A stretch of 64,000 bases of DNA. It comes from Candidatus Binatus sp. Lineage in GTDB: Bacteria; Acidobacteriota; Terriglobia; Acidiferrales; UBA7541. Numbering within the stretch: position 1 is the stretch's first letter; each line of letters starts with the position of its first letter. Made by a program: the position numbers and the translations under genes. The notes below the pieces were generated by a model that saw only the letters and a program-made list of their open reading frames with translations, was not told the origin of the DNA and did no database searches. The DNA lies in the NCBI GenBank assembly GCA_035602755.1, contig DATNLR010000127.1, positions 19,719 to 83,718 on the forward strand, read 5' to 3'. Below, piece after piece: positions 3,036-62,814 of this stretch.

Positions 3036-6000
3036 CTACTCTCCGGTCCCGGTTAGTTTCACCGTCTGAGGCGAGTTCGTTGCCGCGTCGGCAATTGTGA
3101 GCGTGCCGGTGCGAGTGCCCGTCGCCGTCGGGGTAAACGTCACCATAACCGTGCAACTCGCTGGGGAGGGCCCCAACGAGCTAGTGCAAGTCCCGAGGGT
3201 CTCCGCAAAATCCCCAGTCGTCCCAAACGAAATCGACGTAGATCCCGTGCCAGTATTTTTTATAGTGACCGTCTTGGACGCGCTCGTCGTTCCAACGGCC
3301 TGCTTGGCAAACGTCTCGCTTGTCGGCGTGGCAGTTACCACAACCGTGAGAGCTTTTCCCGTTCCGCTCAGGTTGACCATCTGCGGCGAAGTTGACCCGT
3401 TGTCATTAACCGAGATCGACCCAGCGAGAGTACCCGTCGCTTGCGGCGTAAACGTCACGGAAATCGTGCAAGTCGCCGGAGAAGGACCGAGCGTGGTGCC
3501 GCACGTGTTCGTCTGCGCGAAGTCTCCGCTCGCGGGTGCAATCGAAATCGGCGTGGACGCTGTGCCGATGTTTTTCACCGTCACGGTTTTCGCGGCGCTA
3601 GTGGTTCCCACCGTTTGTGCCGCAAACGTTTCGCTCGTGGGTGAAACTGTCACCACAACCGTGCCAGCCTTGCCGGTCCCGGTCAGGCTCACCGTCTGTG
3701 GCGAGTTGCTGGCATGGTCAGTGATCAAGATCGAGCCGGTCAGTGTGCCGGCCGATTCAGGAGTAAATGTCACGCTAATCGTGCAGCTTGCTGGAGAAGC
3801 TCCCAGGGTAGGGCCGCAGGTGGTGGACTTCACAGCAAAATCTCCACTGGCGGGCGAGATTGTGATCGGCGTAGAACCCGTACCAGTGTTCTTCACAGTT
3901 ACCGTCTTAGCCGCGCTGGTTGTTCCTATCGCCTGGGCAGCAAAAGTCTCGCTCGTCGGAGAGGGTGTCACGATAACAGTGGCAGCCTTGCCCGTCCCGG
4001 TGAGCTTCACCATCTGCGGCGAGCTGGTTGCGCTGTCGGTGACCGAGAGCGTTCCCGTCAGAGTGCCAGTCGTAGTCGGACTGAACGTCACGGATATGGT
4101 GCAACTCGCGCCCGCGGCCAACGTCGTGCCGCATGGTGTTGTTCCGCCGCCAACCGCTGCGAAGTCTCCGGTGACCGCAAACGAAAGCGAGGTCGATCCA
4201 GTTCCCGTATTCTTCACTGTGACAGTCTTAGCCGCACTGGTGGTCCCGACTGTCTGAGCGACAAACGTTTCGCTCGCAGGCGTGGCCGTCACTATGACGG
4301 TACCGCTGCTCGTCCCTGTGCCTGACAAAGTCACCATCTGCGGCGAGTTCGTTGCCTGGTCCGTGATAGAGATGCTGCCGGACAGCGGACCGGCGACGCT
4401 GGGTGTGAACGTCGCGTTGATGGTGCAAGATGCGCCAGCATCCAGTAGGCTCCCGCAGTTATTAACCTGAGCAAAGTTACCGGTGGTGGAGATGGCGATC
4501 GATGTATAAGCAGAGCCCGTATTCTGCACCGTAAAAGTCTGGAAATTACTTGTGGTCCCGACAGCTTGGCCGCCAAAGTTGTAAGTTGTCGGCGTTGCTG
4601 TGACCGTGGTCGTCGCAGGTGTCGCCGTTCCGGACAGAGTTACGACCTGCGGCGAATTTGTTGCGCTGTCAGTGACCGAGATATTGCCCGTTAAGCTGCC
4701 CGTCGTGGTTGGAGCGAACGTTGCGCTAATCGTGCAGCTTGCGCCAGCCGCTAATGTAGAGGGAGCAAGCGGACAAGTAGTCGACTCACCGAAATTCGTG
4801 CTCGCGGTGATGCCGATCGTTGTAGCCACGCTACCGGTATTTTTTACGCTAATCGGTTGGGTAGGGCTGTTTTGGTCCACCACCGTTGAGGGGAAAGAAA
4901 GTGTGGTGGGCGATGCCGTAACGGTGGTCGCTCCAGTACCCGCACTTTGAGACACGAAGAACGGCTCATATGCGAAGACCGCGCAGCCACTCCAGGGCGC
5001 TGATGGGTAATTCTCGACAAATACCAGGAAGGTCCCAGGCGTGGCGATGTCTGCGGAAGGTACGGTGACTTGTAATTCCGTCGAACTCACAAAAGTCGGT
5101 GTGAGGAAGATACTTGGGAAATTAATCCCAACATTCTCTATCGGACTTCCCGTCCCGTTCTGGGTAAAGCCGCTCCCGTTTATCGTAAGAGTGAAGGCTG
5201 AGCTTCCTGAAAGGACCGACGACGGGCTTAGGCTCGTGATTGTGAGTGGCGAGCTGGTGGTGTTGAAATTCGCATATACGAGGGATTCGTCGGTTGGCGA
5301 CAAGGTGTCAGGATTCGTTGTACCGGTGAGGTCCCGACTCCAGCCAGTGAAAATCCAAGACGAACCGCCCGAGTTCGCAGATGGCGTCTCGGTATAGGTC
5401 AATTCTGTCCCGGACGGATAGAATCCGCCAGAGATTGTGGGCGCAGGAGTGATCGCTCCGGTGCCGCCGCAAGGATTGAAATTGGTTGCCGGTACATATT
5501 CAGGACTGAGGGTCGCGATGTAACTCTGACTAGTCGCAGGCAGCGTGATCGTCAGAGGATTTGAGGTTCCTCCTGGAGTCCAGGTCGAAAAAACAAATTG
5601 GGTGTTCAAGTCGAAAGGCTGTAAAGGCGAAGAAAAATCCAGCGTGTGCATGGTGCCGGAGGCCCAAGCCGCGCCATCATAATCTGGGTCTGGAGAAAAA
5701 TTCTTGGGCGTGTAAGTAAATCCGGAGTTCTCCTCCGTGGCGTCCACATTTGCAGACAAGTTCGAGCTGAACGAATCGGGCGTAACGTCGACGGTATAGA
5801 TTGGATAGGTTGTGAATTCCGCAGCGGTATCAACGAACAAACCCGTGTCCGGAACGTAAAATGTCTTGGGATTGGCGCCAAGACCGCCGGGAAGCCAGTA
5901 AGGCGCATTATTGAATTCGTAGAAGTTGTATCCGCTAGCCGGACTGGCAGTCAACGTGGCTTGCTGGCGCGCCACAAAAAAAACGCCGGAGGCGCCGGCA

Positions 6001-7283
6001 TAGCTCTGAGGCGTTGGCGAGACGGAAACGGTGCCCGACCCCGTCGGGAAGATTGCAGCAGTATAAGGGACCAGTTGCATAAAATTGGCGGAGTAGGTTG
6101 CTACTTGCGGGGCTGTTGACGGAAAGCCGGCGTCGCCATTTCCCGGAGTCACCGTAATTGTGTGGCTCTGCATTCCGCCGTCGTTCCAGACGCCGTAGGT
6201 ATAGTAAAAAACTGTCGGCTGTATCGGATTGCTGCTATCGACGATAATTCCGTTCAAAGTTTGTACGCCGGTGGCAACAGCCAGTGTGTGGGAGGAATTC
6301 AGCAGCCAACTGTAGGTCGTTGGCGTTGTGACGGGCGAGCCATCGACCATCACTTGCAAGCCGGGCGGGTTCGACGTGACTGTGACCTGCGAGGGGGCTA
6401 CGCCATACAAGCGCATAATGCCTTCGACGTCAGCTGCCGAATAACCTATGAGGTTTGACAGAGGCATGCCAGGCGGAATTGAATCGAGCGGAGGCCCGCC
6501 GTTACGCGAGAAGGAGAAAGCCGGGTATTCCATCACGGAGGCGAAATCGTACGGAGTCAAGTTCTGCTGGTCGTTATCCACGGCTGGAAGGAAGTTGCCG
6601 ATCGAGCCTTTAATAACGTTGCCATAGTTGAACGTCACATAGGTGGCTGCATCGATGCGCGACTGTTCATGCCACACACCTGTAACGTGTCCAAATTCGT
6701 GGAGAATGGTTGCGATCGTGCAATTCGGTGCTCCATCAACAGACTGCTCCCCGTCATTCGCATCGCCTTCCGTAGCTTCACAGATTCCATTGGCAGTACC
6801 GCTCAGGTTGATGTCGATGTAGTTTGCTTGCGTAGTGCGAGGCACGAGCTGGATGACTCCGGCAAAAGTGGAGTTGTAGGTGCTGATCGCGCTGGCGAGG
6901 TTCGGATTCGCCGATGCTTCGTCGATCACATACGGGATTTGAGCGACACCGTCAACTTTTGGCCAGAGATGGTTCGAGTTAACGAGGCCGACGGAATCGG
7001 AATGTACTCCGCCGCCTTGGCCAGCCTTCGGCATGGGCTGCACGTTTTCCAGGATGATGTCGCCCTCATAGATGTTCCGGCCGTTGATAACTTGATAGGT
7101 GACCGGTCGTCCGCGCCACATGCCCATGCGTGTGTCGGAGGCCGTAGGTGTAGGCTGCGTGATCTGACCGGGGGCTGGTCGTCCTTGCGGTGGCTGTCCT
7201 TGCGCGAAGCTCGCGCCACCAACAGCGCAAAAAACGAAAAGACATAGCACGGACACAGCAATGCGCGACAAGGCTCTAAGCAC
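3036..7283 (-). CDS. Giant secreted astacin-like (M12A-type) zinc metalloprotease with IPT/TIG-like domain and six C-terminal choice-of-anchor-D-like beta-sandwich repeats
   Basis: Signal peptide MLRALSRIAVSVLCLFVFCAVGGASFAQG. Astacin zinc signature HEFGHVTGVWHEQSR (nt 6666-6701) and a Met-turn-like YDFASVMEYP. IPT-like segment LTITSLSPSSVLSGSSAFTLTINGSGF. Six ~105-aa repeats with the pattern VGTTS..KTVTVKNTG....DF......C...L....SCTI.VTF.P...G...G...V.D.A..SPQ.V.L.GTG. GTG start preceded by GGAGGA. Confidence 0.75.
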   Translation of the reverse strand: MLRALSRIAVSVLCLFVFCAVGGASFAQGQPPQGRPAPGQITQPTPTASDTRMGMWRGRPVTYQVINGRNIYEGDIILENVQPMPKAGQGGGVHSDSVGLVNSNHLWPKVDGVAQIPYVIDEASANPNLASAISTYNSTFAGVIQLVPRTTQANYIDINLSGTANGICEATEGDANDGEQSVDGAPNCTIATILHEFGHVTGVWHEQSRIDAATYVTFNYGNVIKGSIGNFLPAVDNDQQNLTPYDFASVMEYPAFSFSRNGGPPLDSIPPGMPLSNLIGYSAADVEGIMRLYGVAPSQVTVTSNPPGLQVMVDGSPVTTPTTYSWLLNSSHTLAVATGVQTLNGIIVDSSNPIQPTVFYYTYGVWNDGGMQSHTITVTPGNGDAGFPSTAPQVATYSANFMQLVPYTAAIFPTGSGTVSVSPTPQSYAGASGVFFVARQQATLTASPASGYNFYEFNNAPYWLPGGLGANPKTFYVPDTGLFVDTAAEFTTYPIYTVDVTPDSFSSNLSANVDATEENSGFTYTPKNFSPDPDYDGAAWASGTMHTLDFSSPLQPFDLNTQFVFSTWTPGGTSNPLTITLPATSQSYIATLSPEYVPATNFNPCGGTGAITPAPTISGGFYPSGTELTYTETPSANSGGSSWIFTGWSRDLTGTTNPDTLSPTDESLVYANFNTTSSPLTITSLSPSSVLSGSSAFTLTINGSGFTQNGTGSPIENVGINFPSIFLTPTFVSSTELQVTVPSADIATPGTFLVFVENYPSAPWSGCAVFAYEPFFVSQSAGTGATTVTASPTTLSFPSTVVDQNSPTQPISVKNTGSVATTIGITASTNFGESTTCPLAPSTLAAGASCTISATFAPTTTGSLTGNISVTDSATNSPQVVTLSGTATPATTTVTATPTTYNFGGQAVGTTSNFQTFTVQNTGSAYTSIAISTTGNFAQVNNCGSLLDAGASCTINATFTPSVAGPLSGSISITDQATNSPQMVTLSGTGTSSGTVIVTATPASETFVAQTVGTTSAAKTVTVKNTGTGSTSLSFAVTGDFAAVGGGTTPCGTTLAAGASCTISVTFSPTTTGTLTGTLSVTDSATSSPQMVKLTGTGKAATVIVTPSPTSETFAAQAIGTTSAAKTVTVKNTGTGSTPITISPASGDFAVKSTTCGPTLGASPASCTISVTFTPESAGTLTGSILITDHASNSPQTVSLTGTGKAGTVVVTVSPTSETFAAQTVGTTSAAKTVTVKNIGTASTPISIAPASGDFAQTNTCGTTLGPSPATCTISVTFTPQATGTLAGSISVNDNGSTSPQMVNLSGTGKALTVVVTATPTSETFAKQAVGTTSASKTVTIKNTGTGSTSISFGTTGDFAETLGTCTSSLGPSPASCTVMVTFTPTATGTRTGTLTIADAATNSPQTVKLTGTGE
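3039..4950 (-). repeat. Six tandem in-frame ~315-bp coding repeats; the last four (about 3039-4316) are most similar to each other
   Basis: The motif SETFAAQTVGTTSAAKTVTVKNTGTGST recurs nearly verbatim in repeats 3-6 of the 1415-aa protein. The long antisense ORFs in this interval are repeat shadows. Confidence 0.8.
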
Positions 7284-27483: not shown

Positions 27484-29427
<1,944 letters not shown>

Positions 29428-43991: not shown

Positions 43992-44065
43992 GCGGGATTC
44001 GTATAGTGGTAGTACGCGACCTTGCCAAGGTCGAGGCGAGAGTTCGATTCTCTTATCCCGCTCCA
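43992..44065 (+). tRNA. tRNA-Gly (anticodon GCC), CCA encoded
   Basis: Manual cloverleaf. Acceptor GCGGGAT/ATCCCGC. D-arm GTAT-AGTGGTA-GTAC. Anticodon stem CGACC/GGTCG with loop TTGCCAA. T-arm GAGAG-TTCGATT-CTCTT. Discriminator T followed by CCA. Confidence 0.9.
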
Positions 44066-44317: not shown

Positions 44318-46228
44318 TTATTCGGTGTTGGCGAAGAAATGAGGGTATAGCCGCTTGCAAGTCTCTGACGTACATCCCGCCTTCAAGTTCTCGGTTGTGG
44401 GCTTGTCTTCACGCCAGTTCTTTGCCTCAATCAGTCCATGGATGAGCTCGGCTTGCAGCGTATATTGCTCCGGCGGAACTTCTGCTCGGGCCCACTCCTT
44501 CTGCCACTTAGCTAGGCGCGCGCGCAAGATGGCCTCGTCCTCCGCAGGTCCGTGTTGAGAAATCTCAAAAGCAGCCTGCTTGGCGATCAACGGCTCTTCA
44601 CGCTGCAGCGCCTCGCGAAAGAAGAGGTCCACGGCGGGCGAATAGTAGGATTTGCACAACGCTATGAGCGGAGTCACATCCAGCGCTTTGCCATCCAACG
44701 CAATGCCCGCCTGCAATAATTTGAGGCCGCCTTGGGTGTCCCAGTGTGCCAGATATGCAAGTATTCCGCCGCGCGTATCGCCACCCCACTGCGAGCCATA
44801 CTGCTGGTACAGCGCGAGCATTTGCGGATAGACGCTCTTGGTGGCAAAACGCCCCGCCAACATCGCCTTTTCCGACATCAAAGCCCTCGGCTTTCCCCCA
44901 CCGCTCGCTCTGCTCTGTAAGTCGCTCAACAGGCAGTCATCCACTTCCGGCAAGCTGTCTGCCGGCAGCTTCGCCATCACGTCAAACTGCAAATATTCGG
45001 TCGGATTGCACGCCGCTTCTACCACGTAGGGCCGGCCTTCCGCTGGAGCGAGTTCCATCAGACGCTTCAAAGCTGCGCTTTTCGTTCCCTGAAACGTGTC
45101 GTCGAGTTTTTCTTCCAGTAAATGTTTTAGCGCCGGCACGATGCGCTGATCGGCGAGGTACTGCCCATAGGAGTTCAGCAACCAGTCCTGATGCCAGATG
45201 CTCACATCACCGAAGTGAGTGATCAGCACTTCCTGGGCAGCGGCAAATTGCGGAGTATAGGTCTCACCTTTCTGCGCGTAGGTGGTGAACACTGTTTCCG
45301 CTGTCTGTGCCAGGCTTCGCCCGCCGCGTTGTGGCAAGGTGGCCGCCACCTTCTGCAAATATTCTTGCTCGAACTGCTCCTGCGCCTGCTCCGTTGGCTG
45401 CGCCGCACTCGGCCCCGGCGGAACCGTCAGCGTAGCTTTCATCTCCGCGGCGAGCTGAAGCGCTGCTGCAACCGGATAAGAAGGATCGGTCATGGACTGT
45501 TCGAGAAGCTTCACGATTAATTCGCGGTCTCGCGCGACCCATAAAGCCGGAGTAATGCTCGTGCCGAACGGCTCGTATACTTGCGGGTGGAAAAACAGGT
45601 CCACTTTTGCGCGCGTCGAAGGCTCGCCGGTCAGCCACCTAAGCGTGTCCACATACTCCTGCGCAGTCCCAAGGTCGGGGGCGCTGCGAATCTTCTCCAT
45701 CAAATGATTCACCAGGGCCTGTTCGGCGGCCTCCTCCATCGGCGTCACGGTGAAACTCACGTCGTTGGTCGTCAGTGGCTCTTTGCCCTGCGGGGAATTG
45801 TCGGAATTCAACACCCGCGCGGTGGATAGGCGAACCGTATAGTTGCCCGGTTTGTCGAAGCGATACACCGCGTTGAGCAGCAGAAAGATATGTTGTGGAT
45901 CCCCCGGCTCAAGCTTTGAGGTTATTACATAATCGGGAACATACGGATGGCCGCGCGAAGAATCCGCCAGCCAGTTGAAAACTCCGTCGGAAGGCGTGAT
46001 CGTGAACTGATCAATTGGAGATGCGGGCTCGGTGACAATTGTGTTGACGGCGTAGCCTCGCTCATCGGCCGCAATCCCGAGGTCCATGACAATCGGCTCG
46101 CCTATGCGGTAGGAAACTTTCCCATCCCTCAACGAAAGCTGTACCCGCACGCCGTTCGTTTGTCCGAACGAGGAGCTCACCATCAGGAAGAGAAATACGA
46201 CGCCAGCCGCAAATTTCCATACTTGCAT
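44318..46228 (-). CDS. Secreted hypothetical protein (636 aa), N-terminal beta-sandwich-like region and alpha-helical C-terminal two thirds
   Basis: Signal peptide MQVWKFAAGVVFLFLMVSSSFGQ. The long ORF has coherent composition. No catalytic motif or family recognised. Confidence 0.6.
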   Translation of the reverse strand: MQVWKFAAGVVFLFLMVSSSFGQTNGVRVQLSLRDGKVSYRIGEPIVMDLGIAADERGYAVNTIVTEPASPIDQFTITPSDGVFNWLADSSRGHPYVPDYVITSKLEPGDPQHIFLLLNAVYRFDKPGNYTVRLSTARVLNSDNSPQGKEPLTTNDVSFTVTPMEEAAEQALVNHLMEKIRSAPDLGTAQEYVDTLRWLTGEPSTRAKVDLFFHPQVYEPFGTSITPALWVARDRELIVKLLEQSMTDPSYPVAAALQLAAEMKATLTVPPGPSAAQPTEQAQEQFEQEYLQKVAATLPQRGGRSLAQTAETVFTTYAQKGETYTPQFAAAQEVLITHFGDVSIWHQDWLLNSYGQYLADQRIVPALKHLLEEKLDDTFQGTKSAALKRLMELAPAEGRPYVVEAACNPTEYLQFDVMAKLPADSLPEVDDCLLSDLQSRASGGGKPRALMSEKAMLAGRFATKSVYPQMLALYQQYGSQWGGDTRGGILAYLAHWDTQGGLKLLQAGIALDGKALDVTPLIALCKSYYSPAVDLFFREALQREEPLIAKQAAFEISQHGPAEDEAILRARLAKWQKEWARAEVPPEQYTLQAELIHGLIEAKNWREDKPTTENLKAGCTSETCKRLYPHFFANTE

Positions 46229-46702
46229 CCGGCACCTCCTACGCGTTATGTGCCCTTAGACGCCGCGCAATAGCTATTTGTTGCCAGGTCTCAACTATCT
46301 TGCCAGTTGTATCCGGATTCATCCCGTTGCTCCAGTAAAATTGCTCGGGCACTCAATCGAAGCCTGTTTTCCCTGCTGTCACGCAGTTGTACAGAATTGT
46401 AAAACCCCCCTAGAGCCCTTATTTCCGCAAGCGGAAGGCTCGTCTCGCGCGTCTAAGCACGGTGAATGAGCTCGCGGAAGGGAATGTAAATTCTCCGGAC
46501 TCGCGCCCGAAATCTATTGTGGGCGACCGATTTATTGGAGTATGCTCCCCGACGCACTCCCCCGGATTCCACCGGGGCTTGGAACCGGCCCAGTTTTACA
46601 AAACCAACCCAAACAGAAACATCCGAATTCGTCCGGATGGCGTAGTAACAGTAGGAGTGGTTGAAGTCTGATGTCCAAACTCAACAGGAGGTAATTCGGG
46701 AA

Positions 46703-46990
46703 ATGACCAAATCAAAGAAGGCTCTAGTAGCTGGTGCAGCACTTGCAGGCTTGCTTGCCGGTTCCAGCGCAACGATTCAAGCATCGAATCTTCTACCTGG
46801 CTTGAGAGCTGCCGCGCAGTCCGATCAGGCGCCAGCCGACAAGAAGGTGAAGGAAAAGCACGCTTGCAAGGGTCAGAATTCCTGTAAGGGCAAGGGTGGA
46901 TGTAAATCGAGCGACAACGGTTGCAAAGGCAAGAACTCTTGCAAAGGCAAGGGCGGCTGCGCAACCGACGGTTCCAAGATGCCCGAATAA
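46703..46990 (+). CDS. bufA: Bufferin-type (6-Cys class) RiPP precursor peptide with Sec signal peptide
   Basis: AGGAGG lies upstream of the ATG. The signal peptide is MTKSKKALVAGAALAGLLAGSSATIQA. The core is HACKGQNSCKGKGGCKSSDNGCKGKNSCKGKGGCATDG, with 6 Cys in a duplicated CKG(Q/K)NSCKGKGGC module. The gene lies immediately upstream of DUF692, DUF2063 and DoxX genes. The ORF track extends to a TTG at 46661. Confidence 0.7.
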   Translation: MTKSKKALVAGAALAGLLAGSSATIQASNLLPGLRAAAQSDQAPADKKVKEKHACKGQNSCKGKGGCKSSDNGCKGKNSCKGKGGCATDGSKMPE

Positions 46991-47014
46991 GAAGGCGCAA
47001 GCTTTCTCCTGTCC

Positions 47015-47041
47015 AGGGCCGGCTTGGGGCTTACCGGCCCT
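47015..47041 (+). terminator. Intergenic stem-loop between precursor and modifying-enzyme genes (possible partial terminator or mRNA-stabilising hairpin)
   Basis: Perfect 8-bp GC-rich stem AGGGCCGG (47015-47022) / CCGGCCCT (47034-47041) with an 11-nt loop. It sits 25 nt after the precursor stop codon and 31 nt before the DUF692 start. There is no strong U-tract. Confidence 0.4.
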
Positions 47042-47072
47042 CGACATCCCCTTCGATTTACCGGAGTAGCGT

Positions 47073-47924
47073 ATGCCTGCGAATCGCTTTAATAATTTTA
47101 CGGACTATGGGATCGGAATTGGTCTGCGCGCCACGCATTACAATCACATCCTGACGCGCAAGCCGGTAGTGGACTGGTTCGAAATAATTTCCGAGAATTT
47201 CATGATCGATGGCGGCCGACCATTGCGCATCCTCGATCAAATTTTAGAGCAGTACAAAGTCGTGCAGCACGGCGTCTCGATGTACTTTGGTTCAGCGGAA
47301 CGTCCGAACCGCGAGCATCTTCGCCGGCTGAAAGCTCTTGTGAAGCGTACGAATACGCCCTGGCTCTCGGACCACCTTTGCTGGGGAAGCGTGGATGGCC
47401 GCTACACGCACGATCTGCTGCCCATGCCGTACACCTTGGAAGCCGCGCGTATCACGGCGCAGAAGGTTCGCGAAGTCCGCGATTACCTGGAAGTCCCGGT
47501 GGTGGTGGAAAACGTGAGCAGCTACGCGGAATTCCATGTTTCCGAGATGACCGAGTGGGAATTTCTGAACGAAGTGGTGGAGCGCGCCGACTGCGGAATT
47601 CTTCTGGACGTAAACAATATTTACGTTTCGTCAAAAAATCACAATTTCGATCCCTTTACCTACCTCAACAGCGTGCCCCCCGAGCGCGTTGCGCAGATTC
47701 ACATCGCTGGTCATTCAAAGTATCGGAAATATATTTTGGACACCCACGATCATCCGGTGATCGACCCGGTGTGGAAGTTGTACTCCCGCGCGATTGAACG
47801 CATTGGCCACACCGCAACGCTGCTGGAGTGGGACGACAGCATTCCATCATTTGACGAAGTTCACGACGAAGCTTTGAAAGCGAATAGATTCCTGGTCAGC
47901 GCGTCTTTGGCCACGGCCGTATGA
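47073..47924 (+). CDS. bufB: DUF692-family multinuclear non-heme iron oxidase (MNIO; MbnB/BufB-like)
   Basis: Full-length DUF692/UPF0276 pattern: GIGLRATHY, VDWFEIISENFM, HGVSMYFGS, PWLSDHLCW, HDLLPMPYT, VVVENVSSY, LLDVNNIYVSSKNH, IHIAGH, LDTHDHPV and LLEWD. Confidence 0.9.
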   Translation: MPANRFNNFTDYGIGIGLRATHYNHILTRKPVVDWFEIISENFMIDGGRPLRILDQILEQYKVVQHGVSMYFGSAERPNREHLRRLKALVKRTNTPWLSDHLCWGSVDGRYTHDLLPMPYTLEAARITAQKVREVRDYLEVPVVVENVSSYAEFHVSEMTEWEFLNEVVERADCGILLDVNNIYVSSKNHNFDPFTYLNSVPPERVAQIHIAGHSKYRKYILDTHDHPVIDPVWKLYSRAIERIGHTATLLEWDDSIPSFDEVHDEALKANRFLVSASLATAV

Positions 47925-48865
47925 AGCTGCTTGCTCTCCAACGTCGCATGGCCCGCGCGGTAATGACACCGTTAACGCCGTCGGAGCATATGCGTTCGGT
48001 TACGCCCGATGGACGCTCGATGCGCGCGGTGGCGTCTGAAATCATCAAGCCAAACGATCGCCTAACTTCTTTCGAGCGCCTGGAAATCTATAATCGACAG
48101 TATTGGTTTCGGATTCTGTCAGGATTCGCCGAGGATTTTCCCGGCCTTCGCAGCGTGCTGGGAGGAAATCGATTTGATCGTATGGCGAAGGCCTATCTTA
48201 GCGATTGCCCTTCGCAATCCTTCACTTTGCGCAATTTAGGAGCGCGCCTGGAAGGCTGGTTGAGGAAACATGCTCAGTGGGCGGGCACGCGGCAGTTGCT
48301 CGCTCTCGATATGGTACGGCTCGAATGGGCTGATATCGAAGCTTTCGATGGTCTGGCTGAGTCTCCGCTAAAACCGGAAGACCTTGCGGGCGCGAATCCA
48401 GCGAAGTTGCGTTTGCGCCTGCAGCCTTACATTCAGCTTCTGGATTTGCACTACCCGGTTGACGATCTGTTGTTGGAAGTTCGCAAAGTTGAGCAGGACA
48501 CGGATTTCGCCAGCAATGCATTCAGCGAGCGCCATCATCGAAAACGGGTTTCTGCCGTCGCCCGATTGAAAACCGAGCCGATTTTTCTGGCGGTACATCG
48601 CATGGACGATTCGGTTTATTTTCGACGGTTGCAGGCGGAAGAGTTTGCCATTCTGCGCGTTCTTCGTGGAGGTAAACCGCTCAATACCGCGGTGGAATCC
48701 GCGTTGAAAAAGAGTTCGATTGCGACCGAAGAGCGGCCCGCTCAGGTGCAACACTGGTTTCAAACTTGGTCGGCGCTGGGTTGGTTTTGCCGCGTCGCCG
48801 ATGATGTCGCAGAACGAAATTCAGCAGGGCAAACCACGCCGGGAGCAAAGGTTTCCATAAAATGA
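47921..48865 (+). CDS. bufC: DUF2063-family partner protein (MbnC/BufC-like substrate-recruiting subunit)
   Basis: ATGA start/stop overlap with the DUF692 gene. N-terminus LLALQRRMARAVMTP... and YRNQY-like IYNRQYWFRI are typical of DUF2063. The size and position match the DUF692-DUF2063 pairing. Confidence 0.75.
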   Translation: MKLLALQRRMARAVMTPLTPSEHMRSVTPDGRSMRAVASEIIKPNDRLTSFERLEIYNRQYWFRILSGFAEDFPGLRSVLGGNRFDRMAKAYLSDCPSQSFTLRNLGARLEGWLRKHAQWAGTRQLLALDMVRLEWADIEAFDGLAESPLKPEDLAGANPAKLRLRLQPYIQLLDLHYPVDDLLLEVRKVEQDTDFASNAFSERHHRKRVSAVARLKTEPIFLAVHRMDDSVYFRRLQAEEFAILRVLRGGKPLNTAVESALKKSSIATEERPAQVQHWFQTWSALGWFCRVADDVAERNSAGQTTPGAKVSIK

Positions 48866-49374
48866 ACGACGCAGCAAATCCAATTCTGCGGCTCTATAAC
48901 GGCTTCGTACGAGTTGTTTCCAGCCTTCAATCACCGTTTTTGCTGGTGGTTCGGGTGTATTGGGGCTGGCAAATCTCGCAAAATGGATGGGGCAAACTTC
49001 ACAACTTGCAGCATGTGACGCAATTCTTTGCGAGTCTTGGGCTGCCAGCGCCGGGATTTACGGCGGCGTTTGTCTCCAGTTTTGAGTTCACGGCTGGAAT
49101 TTTGCTGGCCGTGGGATTGTTGTCGAGAATTGCCGCGTTGGGCCTGGTAATTGATATGACCATGGCGTATTTGACCTCGGATCGAGATTCTTTTTTCGCA
49201 TTTTTTTCAAACCCGGGGAAATTTTACGGCGCCGATCCATTTATTTTTCTGTTCGTGGGCCTGCTCCTATTGATTTTCGGGCCGGGCAAAATCTCTCTCG
49301 ATGCGCTCCTGAAGCGAATGATGGGAAAAGGCAAATATTCAGACTCCGCAGAGACCAGCTCCTCCGCGGCTTGA
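48862..49374 (+). CDS. DoxX-family membrane protein
   Basis: ATGA overlap with the DUF2063 gene. Four TM helices with the DoxX-like blocks LLVVRVYWGWQISQNGWGKL and FEFTAGILLAVGLLSRIAALGL. Confidence 0.8.
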   Translation: MNDAANPILRLYNGFVRVVSSLQSPFLLVVRVYWGWQISQNGWGKLHNLQHVTQFFASLGLPAPGFTAAFVSSFEFTAGILLAVGLLSRIAALGLVIDMTMAYLTSDRDSFFAFFSNPGKFYGADPFIFLFVGLLLLIFGPGKISLDALLKRMMGKGKYSDSAETSSSAA

Positions 49375-49425: not shown

Positions 49426-50433
49426 ATGAAATCAAAAAAGCTTCGAGGCGCGTTTCTAGGTTCGGCAGTATTCTGCTTGTTCGCGGTAATTTCGGCGGGT
49501 TCCTTTCGAACTGACCAAATGACGTCGACCATCGTTATTGGAAATTCACGAATTGATGTGGCGGTGGAGAAGGGAACGCTGCAGGTATCGAAGGACGATT
49601 TGCTGAAGTGGGTGCAGTGGGCTGCGGAGTCCGTTAGCACCTATTACGGGCGTTTTCCGCTCCCTCATGTTTTGCTGCGCATCATCCCGACGGATGGAAA
49701 AGGTGTGCGCAACGGCCGCACGTTCGGAGAAAGAGGCGGATTCATCACCATTCACGTGGGGGCAAATTCCACCTTCGAAGATCTCGCAAATGATTGGATG
49801 CTCACGCACGAAATGGTTCACCTGGCATTTCCGTCGGTCGCCGACGAGCATCACTGGATCGAAGAGGGCATTGCAACCTACGTGGAACCGATCGCGCGCG
49901 TGCGAGCAAAACATCTGGACGCCACACAGATGTGGAGAGAGCTGATTCGCGACTTGCATCAGGGTCTTCCCGCGGCCGGAGATCGAGGGCTCGACAACAC
50001 TCATACCTGGGGGCGCACCTATTGGGGCGGTGCACTCTACTGTTTTCTCGCCGATATTGATATCCACCGGCAAACTCAAAACAAGAAAGGGCTAGACGAT
50101 GCGCTGCGGGGCATCCTGAACGCGGGAGGCGACATTCGCCAGGACTGGGAGCTTAGCAAGGCTCTCGATATCGGAGATCAAGCAGTTGGCGTGAAAGTTT
50201 TGCGGCCACTCTACGACAAGATGAAAGATCAGCCATACGATGTGGACCTTCCTGCGATATGGAAACAATTAGGCATCGAGCTCGAAGGCGGGAGAATTCA
50301 TTTTGTGGATGACGCGCCCCTTTCAAAGACGCGCGAAGCGATTACCTATGGATCGGTTGCGGCCGGATCCAACCCTGTTTCCGCCCTGAGTGTCGTTGTG
50401 GGAGATAGGGCCATGAATTTCCCGCAGCGCTAA
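49426..50433 (+). CDS. Secreted putative zinc metallopeptidase (HExxH, gluzincin-like)
   Basis: Signal peptide MKSKKLRGAFLGSAVFCLFAVISAGS. The HEMVH motif is at nt 49807-49821, followed by ...EHHWIEEGIATYVEP. It starts 51 nt downstream of the DoxX gene on the same strand. The family is not firmly recognised. Confidence 0.55.
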   Translation: MKSKKLRGAFLGSAVFCLFAVISAGSFRTDQMTSTIVIGNSRIDVAVEKGTLQVSKDDLLKWVQWAAESVSTYYGRFPLPHVLLRIIPTDGKGVRNGRTFGERGGFITIHVGANSTFEDLANDWMLTHEMVHLAFPSVADEHHWIEEGIATYVEPIARVRAKHLDATQMWRELIRDLHQGLPAAGDRGLDNTHTWGRTYWGGALYCFLADIDIHRQTQNKKGLDDALRGILNAGGDIRQDWELSKALDIGDQAVGVKVLRPLYDKMKDQPYDVDLPAIWKQLGIELEGGRIHFVDDAPLSKTREAITYGSVAAGSNPVSALSVVVGDRAMNFPQR

Positions 50434-50501: not shown

Positions 50502-52865
50502 TCACTTCGTTTTCATCACATACACCCCATCCCAATCGGCCTGCGGGGCTTCCTCTATGAATTCCTCGGCGCGTTCCAGGAAGGCCTGGGTCGGACCGTC
50601 GTCCGGATAGATGGTGAGAATTTGAGCGAATCTGTCAGCGGCTTCCTGCCAATCCTGGTTGCGGTATGCGGCCATGGCGTGATCGAATTGTTGCAGTAAC
50701 GCTTCGTATTGGGGTCTTTCCGCCGCCACATCGAGCAATTCGTAAATATTTACAGGCTGGTTTTTTCCCTTCACTTTTATCTTGTCCAGTTCGCGGCAGA
50801 CAAATTGGGAGGCAATCTCGCGGTAGGTCGCCTCGCTGATAACCAGCTTGGAGTGATACTGCTTGGTGATCCCTTCCAGGCGCGATGCAAGGTTTACGTT
50901 GTCGCCCATCACCGTCCATGCAAGACGCCGGTCCGAGCCCATATTCCCCACGTTGACGAGCCCGGTATTTAATCCAATTCCCACCGCAATCGGCGGACGT
51001 CCCTCGTTCCGCCATTTCAAATTCAATTTTTCCAGGCCTCGCACCATCTCCAGAGCGCAACTACAACTGCGGAAGGCGTGGTCTAGCTGGGGATAAGGCG
51101 ATCCCCAGAAAGCCATGATGGCGTCACCAATGTATTTGTCCAGCGTGCCCTGATAAGAAAAAATAATTTCGGTCATGGCGCCGAAGTATTCATTCAACAA
51201 GTGTACGAGGTCGTCCGGCGATAGTCCTTCCGACAGCGTTGTAAAACTGCGGATATCGCTGAACATGATGGTCAGCTCTTTCATCTCGCCGCCAGGCCGA
51301 ATGTACTTTTCCGGATCTTTCTCGATTAACTCGATCACCCCTGGCGACAAATACTGCGAGAAACTCTTTCGGATTTGCCGTTTGGCGCGCTCCTCGCGGA
51401 TCATTCGAAAACTAGTGATGGCTGCATAGTTGGCTGCCAGGGTGCCGGCAGGAATGACAAAACTGAGCCACCTTCCGTGGCTGGCGAAACTGAAATAGAC
51501 GAAGCACGCGAATGCCACCAGGGTGACGATCACCGTGATGGTGGAATAGAGCGGCGCGATACGGCTGAATACGAACCCGAAAACGAGACCAAAGATTAGA
51601 ATAAAAGCTAGGTCCACTATTTCTTCGTCTGTTCCGCGGCTTAGAAATCCGCGGCCTTTTTCTCCGCTATGCAACAGATTGTCGATGATGTTTGCATGCA
51701 CCTCCACGCCCATGTAGCCGGTGTCCTGCCAGGGAGTATTACGAACGTCACCGGTGGCCAGCGCTGTCGCGCCGACGAGTACGATCTTGTCACGGAAGGC
51801 CTCCGGTGGAGTGCTTCCTCGAATAACATCGGCCATGGAATAGTGCGGGTAGGTATTGTAGGGGCCGGTGTAATTGATCAGAGCGGTGCCGTTGCGCGAG
51901 GGCCGCAAAACATGTTCGCCGAGTTGAATTCGCTCCAAGCCATCTTCGGCGATATAGGCCACGATCTGCTGGTCGGGAATTTTTTCGTATTCGCGAATCA
52001 CTTGCATGGGCAGCGAAGGAAAGAAATCCTTGTCCTGGTAGCGGATCATCAACAGAGCACGCCGCAGAGTGCCGTCTGCGTCGGGATTAATATTTAGAAA
52101 ACCGTAGGACGCCGCTGATTCAGCAATCTTGCTGATGTTGGCTTCTACACCGGCGGCCACTGTTCCACCGTTTTGGATCCACGCGCTGCCCAGGTCAAAA
52201 GCTTTCCCGTTTTTCGACTTGACCGGCACAACTTGCGGAAAGGTTTGAGCCCATACGATGTTGAAATACTCCTCCGCTGATTTCGTTTCAGCAGATTTTG
52301 CTCGTTCCGGACTGAGAAATAGGTGGCCCAGGATTACGTCGCCGCCCTCCTTCAGTGCGGTTGCAAAATGGGCGTCCTGATCGGTAGAGACTTCCAGTTC
52401 TTTTACCTGCCTCAGGACATTTGGCGAGATGGACGCGCCGAGATTTTTCTGCAATTGCTCGAGTGTTTGCGGCCCCGAATTGCTTTCCGGAGTGGGGAAC
52501 GATTCGTCAAACGCGATGATGCGCGCTCCGCCGGCATTTAGCCGTTCAACCAAAGCTGCATAGTTGCTTCGTGGAAGAGGAAAGGAATTGATTGTTTGGA
52601 GTGTTCTCTCGTCCATACCGACAATGACGATTCGCGGGTCATGCGGGCGCGCTCCGCGCAGACTGAACCTGGTATCCAGCGAGCTTTGTTCAATATTCTG
52701 GAGGAAAACAAAGCCTGCGCGATTGTCACCATTAATTCCAGAGAAAACAAAGAGCGTAAGTCCGCTCAGCGTAACCAGGAGGGCCAAGGCGATATCGATA
52801 CGAACGAAGGGGAACTCTCTGAGTCGCGCCGCCCAGCGAGACCCGTGCTCTTCCTGAGGTGTCAT
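50502..52865 (-). CDS. CHASE2 sensor - class III adenylate/guanylate cyclase with C-terminal TPR-like tail
   Basis: N-terminal TM, a ~350-aa periplasmic CHASE2-like region (IVIVGMDERTL, IAFDESF, VLVGATA) and three TM helices. The cyclase domain carries TIMFSDIRSFTTLSE, GDAIMAFWG, GIGLNTG.V.VGNMGS and NLASRLEG. Confidence 0.85.
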   Translation of the reverse strand: MTPQEEHGSRWAARLREFPFVRIDIALALLVTLSGLTLFVFSGINGDNRAGFVFLQNIEQSSLDTRFSLRGARPHDPRIVIVGMDERTLQTINSFPLPRSNYAALVERLNAGGARIIAFDESFPTPESNSGPQTLEQLQKNLGASISPNVLRQVKELEVSTDQDAHFATALKEGGDVILGHLFLSPERAKSAETKSAEEYFNIVWAQTFPQVVPVKSKNGKAFDLGSAWIQNGGTVAAGVEANISKIAESAASYGFLNINPDADGTLRRALLMIRYQDKDFFPSLPMQVIREYEKIPDQQIVAYIAEDGLERIQLGEHVLRPSRNGTALINYTGPYNTYPHYSMADVIRGSTPPEAFRDKIVLVGATALATGDVRNTPWQDTGYMGVEVHANIIDNLLHSGEKGRGFLSRGTDEEIVDLAFILIFGLVFGFVFSRIAPLYSTITVIVTLVAFACFVYFSFASHGRWLSFVIPAGTLAANYAAITSFRMIREERAKRQIRKSFSQYLSPGVIELIEKDPEKYIRPGGEMKELTIMFSDIRSFTTLSEGLSPDDLVHLLNEYFGAMTEIIFSYQGTLDKYIGDAIMAFWGSPYPQLDHAFRSCSCALEMVRGLEKLNLKWRNEGRPPIAVGIGLNTGLVNVGNMGSDRRLAWTVMGDNVNLASRLEGITKQYHSKLVISEATYREIASQFVCRELDKIKVKGKNQPVNIYELLDVAAERPQYEALLQQFDHAMAAYRNQDWQEAADRFAQILTIYPDDGPTQAFLERAEEFIEEAPQADWDGVYVMKTK

Positions 52866-52932: not shown

Positions 52933-53736
52933 CTATCGAGTCTTGGCCGGATTGCCGTTCTGAGTTCCGCTGGTGCCGACACCGATACCCACACTTAGAC
53001 CCACGGCGATAGCCGTGCCGATAATCACATTGCGCAGAACATGATTTTTGCCAACGTGAGTTGGAGGAGGCCCGTTCTCGGGAACATCCGTGGACAATTG
53101 GCTGCTCTGCACCACGGCTACGGGAGTTTGTGACGTTTGAAAACCGCCGGGAGGAATTACGGAGACGATTTCGACCATTTCGCCGGCGCTGACTACCATC
53201 GAATTTCCGCTCGAACTTGTTTGTCCCGAATTGTTCTGCGCCTGCGCGTTACCGATTGGAGTGACCGATACTTTTCCCTGGTAACAAATGACGGTGGTCT
53301 TGTTGGAAGCGTAGGCCACATAGAAGTCGGTACCGATCACGCCGATCACCGCATTAGGCGTAGTGACCTGGAATTTGCCTGCGGGCTGCGTGATCTTTAC
53401 TACCTGGCTTCGCACTTTCCCGAAATTCATCTCGAGCGAAGTTTGTTGGGAAGCGCCGTCGTGCTGCACGATGCGAAGTTCGCTGTCGGAGCCCAAACTC
53501 AGAATGGAGCCATCATCCAATCCAGCGCGTACGCGGCCCGAATGCGTAGTCTTCAACACGTCATTCCATTGCAGGTCGTCTTTCACTTTCGCCGGCTGAG
53601 AATTGCGGGTAGCGGCCGGGATCATAGCGCTGATCTGTCCGGCGTGTTGCGCGCCGGTCTGTGGGCTGGCCAATACCGGTAGGGAACAGAGCAGCAAACA
53701 AAGCGGTCCCACCAAAATGCGTTTCAACAGATTCAT
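52933..53736 (-). CDS. FecR-domain secreted protein
   Basis: Signal peptide. FecR-like beta region GSILSLGSDSELRI...FQVTTPNAVIGVIGTDFYV. C-terminal hydrophobic anchor. It lies directly upstream of the CHASE2 cyclase on the same strand. Confidence 0.7.
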   Translation of the reverse strand: MNLLKRILVGPLCLLLCSLPVLASPQTGAQHAGQISAMIPAATRNSQPAKVKDDLQWNDVLKTTHSGRVRAGLDDGSILSLGSDSELRIVQHDGASQQTSLEMNFGKVRSQVVKITQPAGKFQVTTPNAVIGVIGTDFYVAYASNKTTVICYQGKVSVTPIGNAQAQNNSGQTSSSGNSMVVSAGEMVEIVSVIPPGGFQTSQTPVAVVQSSQLSTDVPENGPPPTHVGKNHVLRNVIIGTAIAVGLSVGIGVGTSGTQNGNPAKTR

Positions 53737-62727: not shown

Positions 62728-62814
62728 GCGGCTGTGGCGGAATTGGCAGACGCACCAGCTTGAGGGGCTGGCGGTCGCAAGACCGTGGTGGTTCGAATCC
62801 ACTCAGCCGCACCA
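62728..62814 (+). tRNA. tRNA-Leu (anticodon GAG), long variable arm, CCA encoded
   Basis: Manual fold. Acceptor GCGGCTG/CAGCCGC. Anticodon stem CCAGC/GCTGG with loop TTGAGGG. Variable arm CGGTCGCAAGACCGTG. T-arm GGTGG-TTCGAAT-CCACT. Discriminator A followed by CCA. Confidence 0.9.

Follow-up and report, generated by a model that had tools for sequence, protein, structure and literature searches.

A 64,000-nucleotide stretch of a contig assigned to Candidatus Binatus sp. (the window, meaning the whole of the DNA that was analysed) carries four consecutive genes on its forward strand, which encode a small six-cysteine precursor peptide (bufA2 type), a multinuclear non-heme iron oxidase (MNIO, formerly DUF692; bufB), an MNIO partner protein (bufC) and a DoxX-family membrane protein (bufD, or doxX). 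This locus is very probably a Buf2-type bufferin biosynthetic operon of a soil acidobacterium of the Ca. Acidiferrales/Acidoferrum group; the names BUF_6/12Cys and 'Cys-Lys' captophorin are equivalent for the locus type. An earlier sequence-only reading had flagged the range 46703-49374, which holds all four genes but ends one gene before a conserved fifth gene. The coordinates of all features are given in Table 1.

A scan in which each GTDB species was represented by one genome gave 80 related loci with BufB proteins 79-94% identical to that of the window. Their hosts are mostly members of Ca. Acidiferrales/Acidoferrum and of the Acidobacteriaceae, with some Verrucomicrobiota. These loci are referred to below as the relatives.

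Precursor gene and peptide

The precursor consists of a Sec signal peptide (residues 1-27), a variable spacer (residues 28-51) that is not conserved among the relatives, and a core (residues 52-95, KHACKGQNSCKGKGGCKSSDNGCKGKNSCKGKGGCATDGSKMPE) with six cysteines at residues 55, 61, 67, 74, 80 and 86 (Cys I to VI), five of which are directly followed by lysine. The N-terminus reads MTKSKK, then ALVAGAALAGLLAG, then SSATIQA-SN (the hyphen marking the cleavage site), and combines a Lys-rich n-region, a hydrophobic h-region and an A-x-A-type cleavage site; the signal peptide call is a heuristic reading of these regions, with residues 6-20 taken as the hydrophobic segment. The same pattern is common to the relatives, some Verrucomicrobia members having a lipobox instead. 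In the Verrucomicrobiota loci L046, L053, L070 and L075 this lipobox (e.g. VTGC, LTGC) replaces the signal peptidase I site, in agreement with a published figure of about 16% for lipoprotein-type Buf2 precursors; L053 also has two precursor genes in tandem. The AGGAGG upstream of the precursor is kept in the upstream alignment of the relatives.

The core contains an internal repeat (CKGQNSCKGKGGC and CKGKNSCKGKGGC) whose copies are identical at 12 of 13 amino acids but at only 29 of 39 nucleotides, so the duplication is old and has been maintained at the protein level. In the relatives the core is nearly invariant, with the pattern KH[AS]CKG[QK]N[SD]CKG[KQ]GGCK..DNGCKGKNSCKGKGGC. Over 45 pairwise comparisons with the window copy, 622 synonymous and 61 non-synonymous codon differences were counted in the core; the reading frame is thus translated and constrained, and the core, judged from these counts, is under purifying selection. 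The Lys/Gly-rich, duplicated core had been called unusual. It is indeed so composed, but this is the norm of the clade and of the 'Cys-Lys' precursor group.

Among the Pfam and NCBIfam families, the only match of the precursor was the BufA2 model NF050166 (E 3e-10, 40.2 bits, under the curated cut-off of 60), and the Pfam profile search gave no match. For the precursors of 24 diverse relatives, BufA2 was again the only bufferin family matched, below its cut-off (best E 2e-12); one of the 24 also weakly matches an unrelated acid-shock model. Homologues in metagenomes form more than 7,600 clusters at 90% identity. A very large soil clade therefore escapes the NCBI BufA2 cut-off, and its precursors are labelled 'hypothetical' in public records because their scores stay under it; one JGI record bears the name 'type IV secretory pathway TrbL component'. 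A further precursor gene was looked for elsewhere in the window and none was found.

The MNIO BufB

BufB matches PF05114 (MbnB_TglH_ChrH) with 357.9 bits over profile positions 1-261 of 263. It passes the BufB equivalog NF050167 ('MNIO family bufferin maturase') with 348.6 bits for a cut-off of 310, and reaches none of the HvfB, ApyH, ChrH and MbnB equivalogs (HvfB model NF003818: 249.9 bits, cut-off 360; MbnB model TIGR04159: 40.3 bits, cut-off 325). By these profile scores BufB is a clear member of the bufferin-maturase family.

The iron ligands of MbnB are H54, H90, E133, D163, N166, H192, D208, H210 and E239 (PMC9060507). Their equivalents in BufB (H66, H101, E146, D179, N182, H210, D223, H225 and E252) were assigned through 3BWW, Vibrio MbnB (7DZ9) and motif spacing, not through direct alignment to the OB3b MbnB. 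All nine are identical in 3BWW, the structure used for the first modelling of the MbnB ligand set; where the alignments to TglH and MbnB cover a ligand position, the residue there agrees with BufB as well. The ligand set, on which the sequence-only reading had made its claim depend, is thus complete, and the nine positions are invariant in 80 of 80 relatives.

The last ligand opens the motif E252-W-D254-D255, where 3BWW (EGKCG type) has E-R-D-F; EWDD is found in 77 of the 80 relatives. The first Asp of this motif is the catalytic base, and MNIOs for 'Cys-Lys' substrates, BufA2 among them, are marked by an Asp instead of Phe at the next position (PMC13097082).

It was also observed that BufB is 79-94% identical across Acidobacteriota, Verrucomicrobiota and metagenome-assembled genomes labelled Eremiobacterota or Eisenbacteria, with values of 33-81% for BufC and 43-82% for DoxX at the same loci. 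Strong constraint, horizontal transfer or mis-binning could account for this unusual conservation.

The partner protein BufC and the DoxX protein

BufC matches PF09836 (DUF2063) with 51.2 bits (cut-off 27.2) and gives 42 bits with the HvfC equivalog of NCBIfam, whose cut-off of 142 is not reached. An AlphaFold2 model of BufC was built from 34 homologues (mean predicted local distance difference test, pLDDT, 75.9). The top Foldseek matches of this model were TglI (8hi7_A, E 2e-5) and NGO1945 (3dee, E 1e-4), and its C-terminal part matched the lasso RRE TbiB1 (5v1u, prob 0.93). TglI is the partner of the MNIO TglH, NGO1945 is the DUF2063 prototype, and the TbiB1 RRE is leader-binding. A relative of BufC that is 77% identical bears the NCBI name 'HvfC/BufC family peptide modification chaperone', and the exact BufC sequence is deposited for Candidatus Binatus sp. 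as 'DNA-binding domain-containing protein'.

The DoxX protein has hydrophobic segments and matches PF07681 with 65.4 bits (cut-off 23.6); with the HvfX family model NF050144 it gives 52.8 bits, under the cut-off of 80. Since the equivalog cut-offs are not reached, the precursor, BufC and DoxX are considered recognisable but diverged from the proteobacterial models.

Gene order and its conservation

The bufB/bufC and bufC/doxX junctions are both ATGA overlaps. These overlaps had been described in the sequence-only reading, together with a 95-aa open reading frame (ORF) bearing a Sec signal peptide and a six-Cys C-terminal part, and with a hairpin behind it; the ORF and the hairpin were found again at their positions, and the overlaps in both the ORF list and the sequence. 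The precursor lies directly upstream of the MNIO gene, with the DUF2063 gene downstream, in 80 of 80 loci, and DoxX follows bufC in about 75 of the 80. Conservation of the small ORF next to the DUF692 gene in related genomes, which the same reading had named as decisive for its claim, was therefore observed throughout, together with the purifying selection described above. Several contigs from soil metagenomes encode exactly this BufB protein, with the same genes around it. The nearest relatives belong to Ca. Acidiferrales/Acidoferrum, and the Acidobacteria-like host first suggested was right.

Table 1. Features of the Buf2-type locus and its surroundings (positions in the window)
Feature	Position	Strand	Length	Remarks
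bufA2-type precursor gene	46703-46990	+	95 aa	ATG at 46703, stop at 46990
bufB	47073-47924	+	283 aa	MNIO (formerly DUF692)
bufC	47921-48865	+	314 aa	MNIO partner (PME1): N-terminal DUF2063 and C-terminal RRE-like domain
bufD (doxX)	48862-49374	+	170 aa	DoxX-family membrane protein
Fifth gene	49426-50433	+	335 aa	Secreted HExxH protein, M1/M61 aminopeptidase-like fold; predicted signal peptide; outside the flagged range
Shine-Dalgarno sequence	46686-46691	+		AGGAGG, 11 nt 5' of the precursor ATG; read in the sequence
Hairpin in bufA-bufB spacer	47010-47046	+		GC-rich, GGGCCGG...CCGGCCC, extended to 12 pairs
Putative sigma-70-type promoter	46517-46546	+		TTGTGG-18 nt-TATGCT, about 150 nt 5' of the precursor start codon; weak evidence
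Hairpin before precursor	46620-46639			Window copy
Secreted protein	44318-46228	-	636 aa	Pfam and NCBIfam give no family; divergent from the operon
CHASE2-domain adenylate/guanylate cyclase	50502-52865	-	787 aa	Converges on the operon with the FecR-domain gene
FecR-domain protein	52933-53736	-		Precedes the CHASE2 cyclase

Hairpin and upstream region

A strong hairpin was found in the bufA-bufB spacers of 80 of 80 loci, with a median best free energy of -26.9 kcal/mol against -17.5 kcal/mol for shuffled sequences. The stem sequences vary between clades, so what is conserved is the structure of the hairpin and not its sequence. In the window, the 91-nt spacer stretch that holds the hairpin gives -34.2 kcal/mol (z -1.8 against shuffles). 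A canonical intrinsic terminator after the precursor gene was considered and rejected, since the window hairpin has no T tail and at least five T follow the stem in only 20 of the 80 related spacers. The hairpin is likely to act as a partial terminator or attenuator, or as an mRNA stabiliser, which would favour the precursor over the enzymes.

At the promoter-like site, close relatives align as TTGTCA-17 nt-TATGCT, and the site of the window scored under the threshold of the consensus scanner. A regulatory RNA upstream of the precursor was rejected, since the long 5' untranslated region (46553-46702) is no more stable than its shuffles (z +0.58) and the 475-nt region upstream of the precursor gave no Rfam match at E<=1. 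A hairpin some 55 nt ahead of the precursor ATG is present in each relative.

Comparison with known systems

Bufferins were defined in 2024 as products of precursors with Sec signal peptides, in which BufB and BufC turn Cys residues into 5-thiooxazoles and for which DoxX is dispensable (PMC11626156). A survey of 2025 listed thousands of Buf2 precursors, of which 90% have six Cys, along with a core cluster that comprises precursor, MNIO, DUF2063 and DoxX genes; its genome table gives Ca. Koribacter versatilis and Acidobacterium capsulatum one Buf_6-12Cys gene each with consecutive MNIO, DUF2063 and DoxX genes, the precursors of both being called by the authors' Buf_6/12Cys hidden Markov model (PMC12452194). 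A captophorin study of 2026 places BufA2 in the 'Cys-Lys' group (PMC13097082). In view of this literature of 2024-2026, the features that had seemed unusual in the window are family traits of a well-described system. The locus is not novel in the sense in which it had been flagged, as a poorly described system: the Buf2 type is widespread and is already catalogued in Acidobacteriota, Koribacter and Acidobacterium being tabulated.

The closest characterised relative is the buf2 cluster of Caulobacter vibrioides (bufA2B2C2, CCNA_02999-03001). It shares with the window a Sec precursor with six Cys mostly followed by Lys, a DUF2063+RRE partner, an MNIO of the BufB type whose catalytic Asp is followed by a second Asp, the absence of an adjacent sigma/anti-sigma pair, and a similar mature layout, in which Cys I is preceded by about 25 residues and Cys VI followed by about 10. 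It differs in having no DoxX, which is present in the window operon; only the window has the near-perfect tandem core duplication, the acidobacterial host and the downstream M1/M61-fold gene, and its precursor stays under the NCBI BufA2 cut-off. Caulobacter BufA2 was compared here by its published description.

The bufferin 1 or gig operon (Caulobacter, Cupriavidus, Legionella) shares the four-gene architecture and Sec export, and the window is likened to it, by analogy, in thiooxazole chemistry and periplasmic copper buffering; DoxX is dispensable in Buf1. Its precursor is a DUF2282 protein with four Cys and two heterocycles, in clusters that often include SigF/NrsF, whereas the window precursor has no Pfam match. 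The oxazolin, fontiphorin and gonophorin systems (HvfABC, FonABC; 'Lys-Cys' captophorins) have in common with the window an MNIO-PME1 pair, a DoxX-like HvfX and a signal-peptide precursor, and their 5-thiooxazoles and copper binding would be shared by analogy. They differ in the EGKCG repeats of the precursor and the Phe of the MNIO; the window precursor has no EGKCG, and its BufB has Asp255. Methanobactin (MbnABC) shares the MNIO fold and iron-ligand set and, by analogy, the oxidation of Cys to a copper-binding heterocycle. It has a leader but no signal peptide, an oxazolone/thioamide product that is a secreted copper scavenger, and MbnC, as against the signal peptide and the DUF2063 partner of the window.

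A conserved fifth gene downstream of doxX

The main residual interest of the locus lies in the conserved, unannotated peptidase-like gene that follows doxX after 52 nt. Presence of this gene was judged in the 76 genome loci with enough flanking sequence: in 37 of them it is the next gene after doxX, and in six it is found elsewhere within 5 kb (on the opposite strand in three, L062, L068 and L074).

The protein has the invariant motif HEM[VI]HLxFPS....HHWIEEG; its residues H128, E129, H132, E146 and E147 do not vary in any of the copies at the loci or in 36 of 36 aligned homologues. Zinc would be bound by the HExxH motif together with a Glu further along the chain; the spacing from HExxH to Glu is 14-15 residues, shorter than the 18-20 residues of M1 and thermolysin. 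The search of Pfam and NCBIfam assigned no family and gave no M1 match, PF05299 (Peptidase_M61) being reached only below threshold (16.5 bits, cut-off 22, E 0.011), and the public homologues are all 'hypothetical'. A link to solved structures by sequence was rejected, since searches of the PDB with the single sequence and with a profile gave no match. The AlphaFold2 model (pLDDT 85.9, predicted template modelling score 0.83) has a beta-sandwich N-domain and a thermolysin-like catalytic domain. The top 50 Foldseek matches of this model were all M61/M1 enzymes (E 6e-8 to 2e-5, prob 1.0, TMq 0.42-0.56), the best being the M61 structures 7xyo and 8j9c and the two-domain M1 structure 6kp0. The predicted beta-sandwich plus thermolysin-like domain, the HExxH motif and the Glu that follows it in an EEG helix are shared with M61 and two-domain M1 aminopeptidases (7XYO, 8J9C, 6KP0, 6A8Z). 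The fifth-gene protein differs from these in its low identity (13-16%), its much shorter length, its secretion, its tie to an operon for a ribosomally synthesised and post-translationally modified peptide (RiPP), and in lacking, over its 335 aa, the GxMEN exopeptidase motif of family M1.

From gene neighbourhood and fold, the product is most likely a periplasmic M1/M61-fold metallopeptidase-like protein, which would trim the N-terminal spacer of the precursor or turn over the peptide. It is put forward tentatively that, in Acidobacteriota and some Verrucomicrobiota, Buf2 may be a five-gene unit in which a dedicated periplasmic metallopeptidase trims the 24-residue spacer or degrades the copper-loaded peptide. 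If this is true, the product would be the first maturation or turnover protease for bufferins and captophorins; two recent papers state that MNIO-DUF2063 clusters come without a protease and leave the proteolytic processing of the products open, and the gene gives a concrete handle on whether these metallophores undergo such processing. Of the published surveys, one counted unrelated genes only within 10 bp of a known gene and another counted Pfam domains; both would have missed the fifth gene, for which Pfam has no model and whose distance from doxX exceeds 10 bp.

It is also possible, if somewhat doubtful, that the protein works as a periplasmic peptidase of general function, or binds metal without catalysis, and is a stable neighbour in this lineage that does not act on the bufferin. 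At 34 of the 76 loci, among them all cultured Acidobacteriaceae sampled, the gene is missing within 5 kb; its start is separated from doxX without overlap; and its wider family, of about 3,000 clusters at 50% identity, includes many with other architectures. Nor did precursor features (position of Cys I, Cys count, residue before Cys I, lipobox) track its presence: no clear signal was seen, and the small differences between precursors with and without the gene are confounded by phylogeny. Against a chance neighbourhood, 68 of the 73 metagenome loci that have a fifth-gene homologue (56-84% identical) and room upstream carry doxX directly upstream on the same strand (buf genes elsewhere in one, none in four). 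In the six genome loci where it is not the next gene after doxX but is present, the gene stays within 5 kb of the operon, none of 38 spacers between doxX and the gene has a terminator-like site, and its predicted secretion would bring the protein to the same compartment as the exported peptide.

The wider family includes forms of 460-500 aa. A fusion to DoxX was rejected as an explanation of their length, as the N-terminal extension of about 190 aa matches neither DoxX nor another Pfam family; it looks like an extra soluble domain.

Assignment and proposed mechanism

The six-Cys, BufA2-like bufferin locus proposed by the sequence-only reading is supported by the passed BufB equivalog, by the DUF2063 and DoxX matches and by a precursor that matches BufA2 alone, below its cut-off. 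Several points weigh against the assignment or parts of it. The precursor, BufC and DoxX all score below the BufA2, HvfC and HvfX equivalog cut-offs; the hairpin of the window is only marginally stabler than its shuffles; the fifth gene is absent from the loci counted above, and its proposed role is without experimental precedent; the search within 6 kb and among the window's ten largest ORFs found no copper-resistance or metal-sensor gene; and the Buf2-type modification has not been chemically identified, even in Caulobacter (PMC12452194).

As a Buf2-type bufferin operon, the locus would work as follows. The 95-aa precursor would be made in excess of the enzymes, aided by the hairpin 3' of its stop codon. 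In the cytoplasm, BufC would bind the precursor via its RRE-like domain and present it to BufB, which, with O2, would carry out four-electron oxidations of Cys residues to 5-thiooxazoles, by analogy with Caulobacter Buf1 and Buf2 and with fontiphorin. The product would be exported by Sec, and signal peptidase I would take off residues 1-27. In the periplasm the heterocycles may bind Cu(I)/Cu(II) and buffer surplus copper, again by analogy. The modified residues would be the four central Cys, with C55 (Cys I) and C86 (Cys VI) left unmodified and joined by a disulfide; in Caulobacter Buf2, Cys I and VI are unmodified, probably in a disulfide, and the four central Cys lose 4 Da each (PMC11626156). 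DoxX would be an accessory membrane protein, dispensable for the chemistry in Caulobacter. The metallopeptidase-like protein of the fifth gene would trim the spacer or turn the peptide over.

A modified peptide with a role other than copper buffering (Au, Ag, Cd or Zn, or protection from oxidative or hypochlorite stress) is considered unlikely. Such a role would suit the surroundings of the operon, where no copper sensor, CopA/Cus or SigF/NrsF gene was found nearby or among the ten largest ORFs, and the literature, in which MNIO-DUF2063 operons are also linked to stress by gold, by oxidants and by hypochlorite, and which describes a related Microbulbifer cluster that is not induced by copper. 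Every characterised MNIO-PME1 product binds copper, however, and the Caulobacter Buf2 system is copper-induced and copper-protective. The lack of an adjacent metal-sensing regulator had already been pointed out; none is indeed present nearby, but this is not notable, as it is typical of Buf2 clusters, sigma/NrsF genes being found in Buf1 clusters and not in Buf2 clusters (PMC12452194).

That BufB makes oxazolone/thioamide pairs as in methanobactin, and not 5-thiooxazoles, is quite improbable. The two products are isomeric and hard to distinguish, and the Buf2 modification lacks a solution by nuclear magnetic resonance (NMR); but NMR assigned the Buf1 heterocycle as 5-thiooxazole, oxazolin was later reassigned to this group as well, a 2026 study concludes that all characterised MNIO-PME1 pairs give 5-thiooxazoles, and the MbnB model gives BufB a score far under its cut-off (40 bits against 325).

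The idea that the small ORF is not a genuine substrate gene and that the DUF692/DUF2063 pair acts on another target can hardly be upheld: nothing in its favour was found beyond the public annotation 'hypothetical protein', and against it stand the position directly upstream of the MNIO gene at every locus, the synonymous to non-synonymous ratio of about 10:1, the strong ribosome-binding site and the match to BufA2 only.

Natural precursor variants

Some relatives have precursors with fewer core cysteines. Cys IV alone is missing in five loci (L044, L047, L063, L065 and L067), leaving five core Cys, and Cys III and IV are missing together in two (L066 and L068), leaving four; two further loci (L080 and L083) have a shortened middle segment. 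Cys I, II, V and VI are retained in every one of these variants. Provided that Cys I pairs with Cys VI, the variants that lack Cys III and/or IV suggest that the Buf2-type peptide is a pseudo-symmetric hairpin with two metal sites, formed by Cys II and V and by Cys III and IV, of which the second is dispensable. These four- and five-Cys variants are a ready-made natural series for mapping Cys pairs to metal sites.

Neighbouring genes

The genes on either side were considered as possible adjacent regulators and rejected as parts of the system, since the FecR/CHASE2 pair is in synteny only in the closest relatives (L019 and L036) and the 636-aa upstream gene is seen only on contigs identical to the window. 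Elsewhere, the window encodes on its reverse strand a 647-aa amidohydrolase fused to a tryptophan 2,3-dioxygenase (27484-29427) and a 1415-aa astacin-like peptidase with many Ig-like repeats (3036-7283), and on its forward strand two tRNA genes (43992-44062 and 62728-62811).

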